DNA of 7,878 nt from a virus. Its lineage: Monodnaviria > Loebvirae > Hofneiviricota > Faserviricetes > Tubulavirales > Inoviridae. The first letter of the stretch is position 1, and every line of letters starts with the position of its first letter. The position numbers and the translations under genes were made by a program. A model generated the notes under the pieces. That model saw nothing but the letters and a program-made list of their open reading frames with translations, ran no database searches and was not told where the DNA came from. Below, one piece after another: positions 421 through 1,001 of the stretch. The stretch lies in IMG/VR virus record IMGVR_UViG_2654587726_000001; one strand, 5' to 3'.

Positions 421-788
421 TAGTAAATCCAGAATCATGTCGTGCATGGTTTTTCTGAGCTGATGTTGTTAATCCTGTCGGGACTCTACATTCCTTTAGC
501 TATTTTTTAAATCGTATTTTCGTATCCGAGACGCCAGCACGCCGATGAAGAAGATAAGGGGAGGAGGACGGAGGAACGCCAGCCGCACCCGCCCGCAGGG
601 TCGAGGACGGGAGCGCCTGCCGTGACGACGGACGATAATCACGATGATGATGATTCTTGGCGTGTTTGGGCAGGGATAAACCCCCGTCTTGTAACACGGG
701 GGTAGAGTCAACGGAAACTCAAGGGTTTCCAGTTAAACCGTATCCTTTCGATCCTTCGCGGGTAGTCTGCTGAATGCAGGAAAAGGGA

Positions 789-1001
789 TCACATTGCCTT
801 TTTTTTCTTAAGTTCTTCTTTGCTTATTAGATCTTTCACCGCATCATCTAAGTAGTTGTCTATTAAGTGGTTTACTATCTCTGATGGTTTTAGTAGCTCA
901 CCTGTTTTATTACCGATTTCCAGCACTCTTCGTTTTAGCTCCAGTTTTCTGTTTTCGTTAATCCTTACGGTTGTGTCTCCGCGCTTTGTTTCTTTTTTCA
1001 T
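789..1001 (-). CDS. Small DNA-binding protein, ribbon-helix-helix-like; putative phage transcriptional regulator/repressor
   Basis: 70 aa from ATG at 1001-999 (the track's TTG start at 1004 is one codon upstream) with GAGGT Shine-Dalgarno 8 nt upstream. Sequence MKKETKRGDTTVRINENRKLELKRRVLEIG... has a beta-strand then basic helix pattern typical of RHH (Arc/CopG-like) proteins. Divergent from the rep operon, as for repressors of integrated filamentous phages. Confidence 0.5.
   Translation of the reverse strand: MKKETKRGDTTVRINENRKLELKRRVLEIGNKTGELLKPSEIVNHLIDNYLDDAVKDLISKEELKKKKAM

Follow-up and report, generated by a model that had tools for sequence, protein, structure and literature searches.

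The closest described counterpart of the locus analyzed here is the plus-strand origin, ori(+), of the filamentous phage CTXphi, a 167-bp segment with inverted repeats on both sides of the cleavage site and a requirement for HU, in which the initiator RstA nicks between G and T in the "second hairpin", within its apical loop (Martinez et al., PMC4439123). This origin lies between attP and the 3' end of a minus-strand repressor gene, upstream of rep, in the intergenic region ig-1, and CTXphi forms prophages at dif that occur as tandem copies. In the Ff phages (f1/M13/fd), a non-coding hairpin block on the viral strand likewise holds the origins, and in the pT181 plasmid family an initiator of the same Pfam family as RstA (RepC; PF02486) nicks the loop of a G/C-rich hairpin, IR-II. 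We analyzed positions 480–790 of a 7,878-nt sequence (IMG/VR record IMGVR_UViG_2654587726_000001; the whole stretch is referred to as the window), which is an integrated filamentous phage (inovirus prophage) of E. coli, positioned at dif and carrying a CTXphi-type replication module. Region 480–790 is very probably the origin-bearing intergenic region of this CTXphi-like (RstA/Rep_trans) prophage, the counterpart of ig-1, and contains two separable cis modules on the viral (+) strand, an upstream purine- and GC-rich module (A1) and a downstream hairpin module (B). The kind of element is ordinary and essentially known, a CTXphi-like inovirus origin region; what is new is its assignment in this E. 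coli phage family. The features on which the comparison depends are as follows (other loci are designated L001, L002 and so on).

547–578, plus strand: purine-rich run GAAGAAGATAAGGGGAGGAGGACGGAGGAACG at the 5' end of A1, containing GGGAGGAGGACG
565–632, plus strand: near-invariant GC-rich core of A1
608–674, plus strand: origin-region hairpin 1, whose apical loop holds (GAT)4 (644–655)
680–703, plus strand: putative nick-site hairpin of the plus-strand origin, ACCCCCGTCTTGTAACACGGGGGT
710–734, plus strand: short 10-bp hairpin 3' of the nick hairpin, with bulged A731 and core GGAAAC (713–718) / GTTTCC (725–730)
758–768, plus strand: conserved motif GCGGGTAGTCT, direct repeat D8
789–1004, minus strand: 71-aa regulator gene in the rstR position
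1336–2532, plus strand: Rep_trans/RstA-like replication initiator (Rep; Pfam PF02486, E = 1.8e-21)

The gene order of the prophage, attL, origin region, minus-strand regulator and rep, is the CTXphi order, and the initiators belong to one family, Rep being 33% identical to RstA across 95% of its length. Despite this divergence, hairpin 680–703 is identical at 21 of 24 nucleotides to the CTXphi ig-1 hairpin ACCCCCGTCTAGTATTACGGGGGT. Beside rstR, CTXphi ig-1 (L035) reads GGTAG-ACCCCCGTCTAGTATTACGGGGGT-AAATCC, and in CTXphi and the window alike the next bases after the stem are TA(G/A)A. The apical loop of the CTXphi hairpin contains a single G-T step, which fits the published nick, and the apical loop of the window hairpin, CTTGTAAC, retains the G-T-A of the CTXphi loop. 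The motif occurs once only in the window, where the chance expectation is none. Outside the hairpin the flanks of the window and CTXphi are not alignable, and nhmmer searches with A1, A2 (the diverged upstream module of related phages) and the 3' part of B against Vibrio-type contigs gave no match, so that only the hairpin is common to both. Based on the homology, the core of the plus-strand origin is predicted at ~676–770 and the cleavage site at the G691|T692 step of the plus strand, which places the plus-strand origin and a predicted nick for a family of dif-integrated inoviruses.

The architecture around the hairpin also follows CTXphi, where several inverted repeats surround the cleavage site and the fold consists of a long hairpin, the nick hairpin and a short hairpin, in that order (z = −5.8). 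Hairpins 608–674, 680–703 and 710–734 parallel these three; the same order is found in a second E. coli inovirus lineage (L003) and, more weakly, in the window. The CTXphi long hairpin is at the position equivalent to 608–674, and its short hairpin is offset from the nick hairpin exactly as 710–734 is, though its sequence is unrelated. The segment holding both small hairpins (676–738) folds to −15.1 kcal/mol (z = −4.8), a value equaled by 0 of 200 shuffles, whereas the plus strand of 520–790 as a whole is not unusually structured (z = −0.9 as DNA and −0.65 as RNA). Among relatives, the bulge of the 710–734 hairpin shifts or changes base and the pairs are kept (CCAG, CACG, CCCG, CCGG). Further 3', the GGTAG core of the 758–768 motif repeats GGGGGTAG at 698–705; the motif is kept as GGTAGwCT in all copies of module B, a related 11-mer, GTAGCGTGCGG, is common to CTXphi ig-1 and to copies of the type found on a 2-kb plasmid (L007), and the motif may perhaps serve in Rep binding. 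As a BLAST block, module B spans ~659–770 and comprises the two hairpins and the GGTAG-containing 3' segment. It is present in 31 of 5,426 complete E. coli genomes, including enterotoxigenic E. coli (ETEC) strain E24377A and O166:H15 isolates, while a scan of genome contigs for it returned a single 387-bp contig, probably a contaminant.

These features suggest a working model of the origin. Rep would nick the plus strand in the loop of hairpin 680–703, at the predicted G691|T692 step, and the free 3'-OH would prime rolling-circle synthesis, each round being terminated at the same site. In tandem prophages, the nick site would allow Rep to copy the phage genome out of the chromosome. The 710–734 hairpin and the GGTAG motifs at 698–705 and 758–768 would be accessory parts of the origin, probably bound by Rep or by HU, dependence on HU being expected here by analogy with CTXphi.

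If B is the site at which Rep acts, its distribution should be read against that of the initiators. A scan of IMG/VR with the pattern ACCCCCG-N4-GTA-N2-ACGGGGGT found at least 119 viral contigs, of which 119 were analyzed; from a rough estimate of the size of the collection, ~0.4 matches are expected by chance. An RstA-like Rep was detectable in 96 of the 119 (25–100% identity), and among the matches listed it was encoded on the hairpin strand in 94 of these 96 contigs. The hairpin lies 264–1122 nt upstream of rep (46 contigs) or 5–10 kb downstream of it on contigs that are only ~5–14 kb long; in the window it is 644 nt upstream of the rep start on the same strand, inside that range. Two low-GC contigs (L049 and L098) have the nick hairpin together with a Rep-like ORF that is very distant, went undetected by tblastn and is an unconfirmed assignment by eye. 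On L049 (7072–8112), which is inovirus-like, this Rep_trans-like ORF is accompanied by a Rep_1 protein, a further case of both initiator types side by side.

Exchange of modules among close relatives provides a second line of evidence. L012 shares with the window Zot (96% identity), the secretin (98%) and the same A1, but its Rep is of the G2P type (PF05155/PF05144), and in place of B it carries a different hairpin, C (GTTCGGG-AGTTCTGTNACA-CCCGAAC). Hairpin C was found in 38 viral contigs, with a G2P Rep in 37 of them, always on the same strand and, in all but one of the 37, 352–886 nt downstream of the hairpin; none of the 38 has hairpin B, and the two hairpins occur together in 0 of 157 viral contigs. 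The loop of hairpin C in these G2P-type relatives, GTTCTGTNACA, resembles what we take to be the f1 nick, GTTCTTTAATA (GTTCTTT|AATA). Conversely, four phages (L008, L010, L028 and L032) retain Rep (98%), the regulator and B (100%); their small ORF (counterpart of 307–447) is 30% identical to that of the window and A2 replaces A1, as far as checked, and in L010, L028 and L032 the secretin is 45% identical to that of the window. In L173, A2 is paired with hairpin C, and in the second E. coli lineage that carries B (L003/L155) the initiator is again a Rep_trans protein. By these counts and exchanges, it is B, and not A, that goes with the Rep family. One short hairpin motif thus marks RstA-type origins and a second marks G2P-type origins in many viral contigs, which makes the two motifs simple aids to the annotation of inovirus origins and to predictions of the Rep that acts on a given element.

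The region had at first been read as a single-strand origin shared with rolling-circle plasmids, since inoviruses and such plasmids both pass through single-stranded DNA (ssDNA). In its full form this alternative holds that the whole region, hairpins included, is a minus-strand origin at which host RNA polymerase or primase primes on the folded viral strand, with the sharing between phages and plasmids reflecting a common need. In agreement with it, A and B are common to inoviruses and to small rolling-circle plasmids with unrelated initiators, their orientation relative to rep is constant inside each replicon class, and the palindromic ssi of pIGRK (pHW126 family), whose loss leads to multimerization, offers a general precedent only. 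On the other hand, the best candidate for the published nick site in CTXphi is a homologue of hairpin 680–703, the Rep_trans gene is on the hairpin strand in 94 of 96 contigs, and another hairpin takes the place of B when the Rep family changes, whereas an origin that depends on the host should not track the Rep family. Nucleotide searches of a phage collection (presumed to include G4, phiX174 and Ff) with the whole window and with 520–790 gave no match, and thus no similarity to the origins of those phages; CTG triplets near the GGTAG motif are neither conserved nor in excess, and the same holds, in the region's hairpins, for sigma-70-like hexamers, DnaA boxes and CTG sites for primase starts. 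A single-strand origin is expected to be independent of the Rep family, and B is not, while A1 and A2 are, occurring with B, with C, on Rep_1 plasmids or alone. For the region as a whole we therefore regard the minus-strand origin as rather improbable; for B it was dropped once the CTXphi hairpin homology and the tracking of Rep family had been recognized, and it was kept for A1 only, where it is the preferred reading.

Assignment of the region as a CTXphi-like origin also has to accommodate several points that weigh against it. The predicted nick depends on homology to CTXphi and on our choice of the hairpin corresponding to the "second hairpin" of the paper, the text of which prints no sequence. 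The viral contigs matched by the pattern are not phylogenetically independent. Module B also resides on small plasmids that have Rep_1 or RepL-like initiators and lack Rep_trans, and it might have a function independent of Rep, either in addition to or instead of the one proposed. Hairpin 1 is weak in the window copy (z = −1.3). Lastly, the co-variation of A1 with the assembly genes, described below, could be simple physical linkage.

Module A1 extends over ~545–675 (BLAST block ~531–656, comprising the purine run, the GC core and the (GAT)n hairpin). All features that the initial annotation had listed from the letters alone were recovered in and around it, with coordinates shifted by 2–3 nt: the polypurine run, placed there at 549–580, is at 547–578 and has purines at 29 of 32 bases; (GAT)4, placed at 641–652, is at 644–655; the G/C hairpin, described as 7 bp at 681–702, has arms at 680–687 and 696–703 and hence an 8-bp stem with an 8-nt loop; and the second small hairpin, given as 713–730, extends over 710–734. 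The sharp change in composition is equally real, GC content being 67–71% in 80-nt windows over 521–640 compared with 30–45% in the flanks, with an AT skew of +0.57 to +0.69 in the same windows. This shift may be a family trend, as across the motif-bearing viral contigs the 250 nt upstream of the nick hairpin have on average a GC content of 0.47 versus 0.42 for the rest of the phage genomes and are also more purine-rich.

Within A1, a 31-mer core (GGAGGAACGCCAGCCGCACCCGCCCGCAGGG, 570–600) is identical in the copies found by BLAST in L002, L003, L004 and L005, whose flanks differ by 6–23%, and GGGAGGAGGACG of the purine run is common to the diverged A2 modules. Structure is less well preserved than sequence in the window: hairpin 1 folds to −10.1 kcal/mol, compared with −23.6 kcal/mol (z = −6.2) for its L003 homologue, and the (GAT)4 hairpin of the window is without the original 3' arm that is present in L003, L004 and L019. 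L003 and L004 differ in hairpin 1 by a single compensatory A-T/G-C pair. The fold of A1 in the window gives z = −0.5, and RNAalifold on A1 and A2 gives −2.9 kcal/mol. Two further structures were considered and rejected. In some minimum-energy folds the A1 core (CCCGCAGGGTCGAGGA) pairs over a long range with B's pyrimidine-rich 3' segment, a helix that is not kept in L003 or L004, and a conserved GC hairpin at 584–615 in A1/A2 gains two compensatory pairs only by manual realignment, with MAFFT unsupportive and L020 breaking the pairing.

By sequence comparison, A1 is a separable cis module that is independent of Rep type. In BLAST searches of E. coli genomes and plasmids, A1 and B were found together in the second inovirus lineage (L003), and A1 without B was found on 100-kb plasmids beside IS3 (L002) and on a 2.6-kb Rep_1 plasmid (L005). 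A1 is thus paired with B in the window, with C in L012 and with neither in L005 and L002, the pattern that a Rep-independent function would give, most likely one carried out by host or assembly machinery. The most likely role is that of a minus-strand origin, ahead of a packaging signal and then of an HU or origin enhancer element. A minus-strand origin is placed first because every rolling-circle plasmid needs one and because the position 5' of the plus-strand origin matches Ff, in which the order is minus then plus origin. Single-strand origins such as ssoA and those of the G4, phiX174 and Ff minus-strand types are orientation-specific, exchangeable hairpin cassettes on the displaced strand, a candidate description for A1, though similarity to the described types was not found in Rfam or in the phage collection. 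The Ff comparison also has its differences: the Ff initiator is G2P rather than Rep_trans, no sequence similarity was found, and the region here is broken up by attP, a terminator and a small ORF. Relative to CTXphi, A1 is a distinguishing feature, an upstream module specific to E. coli elements and shared with plasmids. For the pT181 origin, which belongs to a Gram-positive plasmid, we know of no sequence similarity to the window. TAGNNT motifs in the region resemble what we take to be CS-6.

The second-ranked role, a packaging signal, would have the phage assembly proteins recognize A1, perhaps together with B, on the viral strand. It is ranked second because A co-varies with the assembly genes: in two comparisons (the window versus L012, and versus L008/L028/L032), A1 and A2 go with the assembly-gene module and not with the Rep module, and each is compatible with either nick module. 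The rolling-circle plasmid L005 has A1 alone, in the rep orientation, and the searched passages of the pDolos preprint provide a precedent for a rolling-circle plasmid as an inovirus satellite. The co-variation could, however, be plain linkage with a breakpoint between A and B; a single-strand origin, needed by every rolling-circle plasmid, is the simpler explanation for A1 on plasmids; and by analogy with Ff the packaging signal follows the secretin gene, where a conserved, hairpin-rich 260 nt found only in inoviruses is located. We consider a packaging function for A1 unlikely.

The segment after the secretin gene (IG1; L001 16505–16765, directly past the right end of the window) is hairpin-rich. 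Its conservation among inoviruses, whichever Rep type they have, is 69–89% and extends to phages with a secretin of just 45% identity, and the plasmids lack it. Its candidate roles are those of a packaging signal or an additional origin element. The possibility raised in the initial annotation that origin and packaging functions map solely to the region after the secretin gene is not borne out for the origin, although IG1 is still a candidate for packaging or another origin function.

The remaining explanations concern expression of the region. Its only ORFs are Arg-rich: the minus strand has two, of 65 and 71 aa, and the plus strand has an ATG frame of 26 aa. If these were real small proteins, the frames should be maintained, yet in L003 a deletion of 1 nt disrupts them, the open frames vary in length and stop position among homologues, and the 31-mer core is invariant at every codon position in diverged copies, unlike coding sequence. 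Small proteins are therefore extremely unlikely, and the earlier description of these frames as non-coding is upheld.

A small or cis-regulatory RNA, which had been offered as an alternative to the intergenic region, could be envisaged in two forms. On the plus strand it would involve the purine-rich run, which is Shine-Dalgarno-like, and an (ARN)n-like stretch; on the minus strand, the spacer from the regulator to the 46-aa ORF at 307–447 would be transcribed, and its CU-rich complement could mask a ribosome-binding site. The minus strand holds the regulator, spacer and small hydrophobic ORF, followed by a strong hairpin terminator, and the minus strand as DNA folds somewhat better than shuffles (z = −3.0). 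Against this, the Rfam search of the region matched no family, 448–790 has no promoter-like or terminator-like site, and the RNA folds are no better than shuffles (z = −0.65 and −1.4). The modules are found in varied transcription contexts, in the same orientation upstream of HTH genes, convergent with the regulator here and beside host DNA in L003, and their conservation tracks the Rep family, not the neighboring genes. We regard an RNA as very unlikely. The AT-rich 480–545 is probably just spacer and the segment upstream of the small minus-strand ORF; a sigma-70-like match at 8 of 12 positions, read by eye and under the scan threshold, is present there.

The sharing of these modules with small plasmids is the less ordinary aspect of the locus, in that Rep-specific hairpins and a Rep-independent A module are found on small plasmids without a matching Rep. 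Module B, preceded by A2 or by a third upstream module, A3, is carried on 2–2.7-kb plasmids of E. coli, E. albertii, Salmonella and Citrobacter, the initiators of which are Rep_1 (PF01446) or a RepL-like winged-helix protein, with no Rep_trans. The carriers include the Rep_1 plasmids L004 (pLAO81), L006 and L031 and the RepL-like plasmids L007, L015, L017, L018, L020, L025 and L027. Eight plasmids (L006, L027, L031, L015, L017, L025, L026 and L029) have B and C in the same orientation and encode neither Rep_trans nor G2P; the loci with both hairpins include L006 1671–1990 and L017 1351–1480. Pattern scans found further inovirus contigs and small metagenomic plasmids with the module, and the segments upstream (A1, A2, A3) and downstream of the nick hairpin assort independently. 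In one strain a plasmid has module B and the chromosome has no module B prophage, which is uninformative, as this is the only complete genome with such a plasmid (n = 1).

The rolling-circle plasmid pDolos is transduced by an inovirus of Shewanella (phage Dolos), and passages of the preprint speculate that such transduction is common. By analogy, though tentatively, the small enterobacterial plasmids with an A-type module and B, several also with C, may be natural phagemids, satellites of dif-integrating inoviruses. The plasmids (pLAO81-like Rep_1 and 2-kb RepL-like) would be maintained by their own initiators, and a co-resident inovirus of either Rep class would nick the plasmid, roll off ssDNA and export it in filamentous virions; A1 and B of the window would then be the helper's version of the cassette borrowed by the plasmids. 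In both cases small autonomous plasmids and an inovirus have cis elements in common, by which hitchhiking would be possible; transfer was shown experimentally for pDolos, whereas the present comparison is one of nucleotide sequences. The plasmids here carry nick hairpins of two Rep families, of which the searched passages of the preprint make no mention. Alternatively, the hairpins reached the plasmids as passengers when recombination took place at a conserved patch. If hitchhiking is true, it would extend a single experimental case to common enterobacterial plasmids.

Two observations on these plasmids stand apart from this proposal. A pC194-type nick motif, CTTGATA, in L006 was tried as a marker of the Rep_1 origin and strand and was rejected as a chance occurrence, its TGA being deleted in the 93%-identical pLAO81; the hairpin before it in L006 resembles a rep terminator. 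Module A3, upstream of B in the 2-kb Salmonella and Citrobacter plasmids (L007 1311–1430), has ~83% matches in ~800 plasmid records, including IncL/M-type plasmids such as pEL60 and 63.6-kb pOXA-48-sized records in which it is annotated under mobA (H47–H83), and it also matches a ColpVC Rep_1 plasmid (L033).

The surrounding prophage comprises the following additional features.

1–123: terminal part of an ISNCY transposase pseudogene
204–236: dif-like left junction (attL), GGTGCACATAA / TGTGACACGCG / TTATGTTGAAA, read from the sequence
234–272: perfect hairpin of 14 bp, flanked on each side by T runs (arms 234–247 and 259–272; inverted repeat I1)
307–447, minus strand: 46-aa hydrophobic small ORF (MHDMILDLLMKYLIAGSLFGMFLFSVITIVLPIVL...), from the ORF list

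The sequence of the window is present in 15 complete E. coli genomes, beside hipBA on the dif side of the chromosome and often in tandem. In L001, the join between two tandem prophage copies is the dif-like site AGTGCGCATAATGTGACACGCGTTATGTTGAAA, and the junction reads secretin stop, ~260 nt (IG1), attP, terminator hairpin, small ORF, region 480–790 and regulator. This order agrees with the proposal of the initial annotation that the region is the split intergenic region of the integrated phage, of which the left part is seen here, to the right of the dif-like junction and downstream (3') of the minus-strand regulator gene; the proposal that it carries origin hairpins is likewise supported, given the homology of the G/C hairpin to the CTXphi ori(+) hairpin. 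The attachment site (window 204–236; L001 16767–16799) has dif-like XerC and XerD arms around an 11-nt central region (TGTGACACGCG) instead of one of 6 nt, and this imperfect site is preserved unchanged at the tandem junction. It appears to be a single dif-like site, whereas CTXphi attP is a folded two-site structure (PMC4439123). The second E. coli lineage (L155 2970–5575; L003 1–4230, NZ_CP027437.1) is inserted between yeiS and sanA and not at dif; its secretin gene is followed by one of the phospholipase D family, and its left end bears an IS110-family (DEDD) transposase, reminiscent of the Neisseria filamentous phages.

Hairpin 234–272 is probably a bidirectional terminator; the Rfam matches there are weak and of a generic hairpin type. 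The 46-aa ORF sits between this terminator and A1, is interrupted by IS3 in the 100-kb plasmids and has a homologue with 30% identity at the same position in L008, L010 and L032. A Pfam search gave no match for it, and its product could be a membrane peptide, for example one acting in exclusion or as a toxin. The 71-aa regulator likewise had no match in Pfam, its regulatory role being suggested by position. At 1063–1119, in the interval separating the regulator gene from the rep operon, are repeats, both inverted and direct (TAGCGCATGCG / CGCATGCGGTA), that overlap the best sigma-70-like match (1076–1105); they probably represent the replication operon's operator and promoter. This plus-strand operon runs rep, a candidate ssDNA-binding protein (so assigned from gene position), coat proteins, a pIII-like protein, Zot (pI) and secretin. 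The pIII-like protein (ORF 3616–5247) has GT(G/S) repeats, with a long (GTGS/GTGT)n repeat at 4660–4900, and its gene is 1704 nt in L001 compared with 1632 nt in the window, stop codon included, a 72-nt difference that fits a change in repeat copy number.

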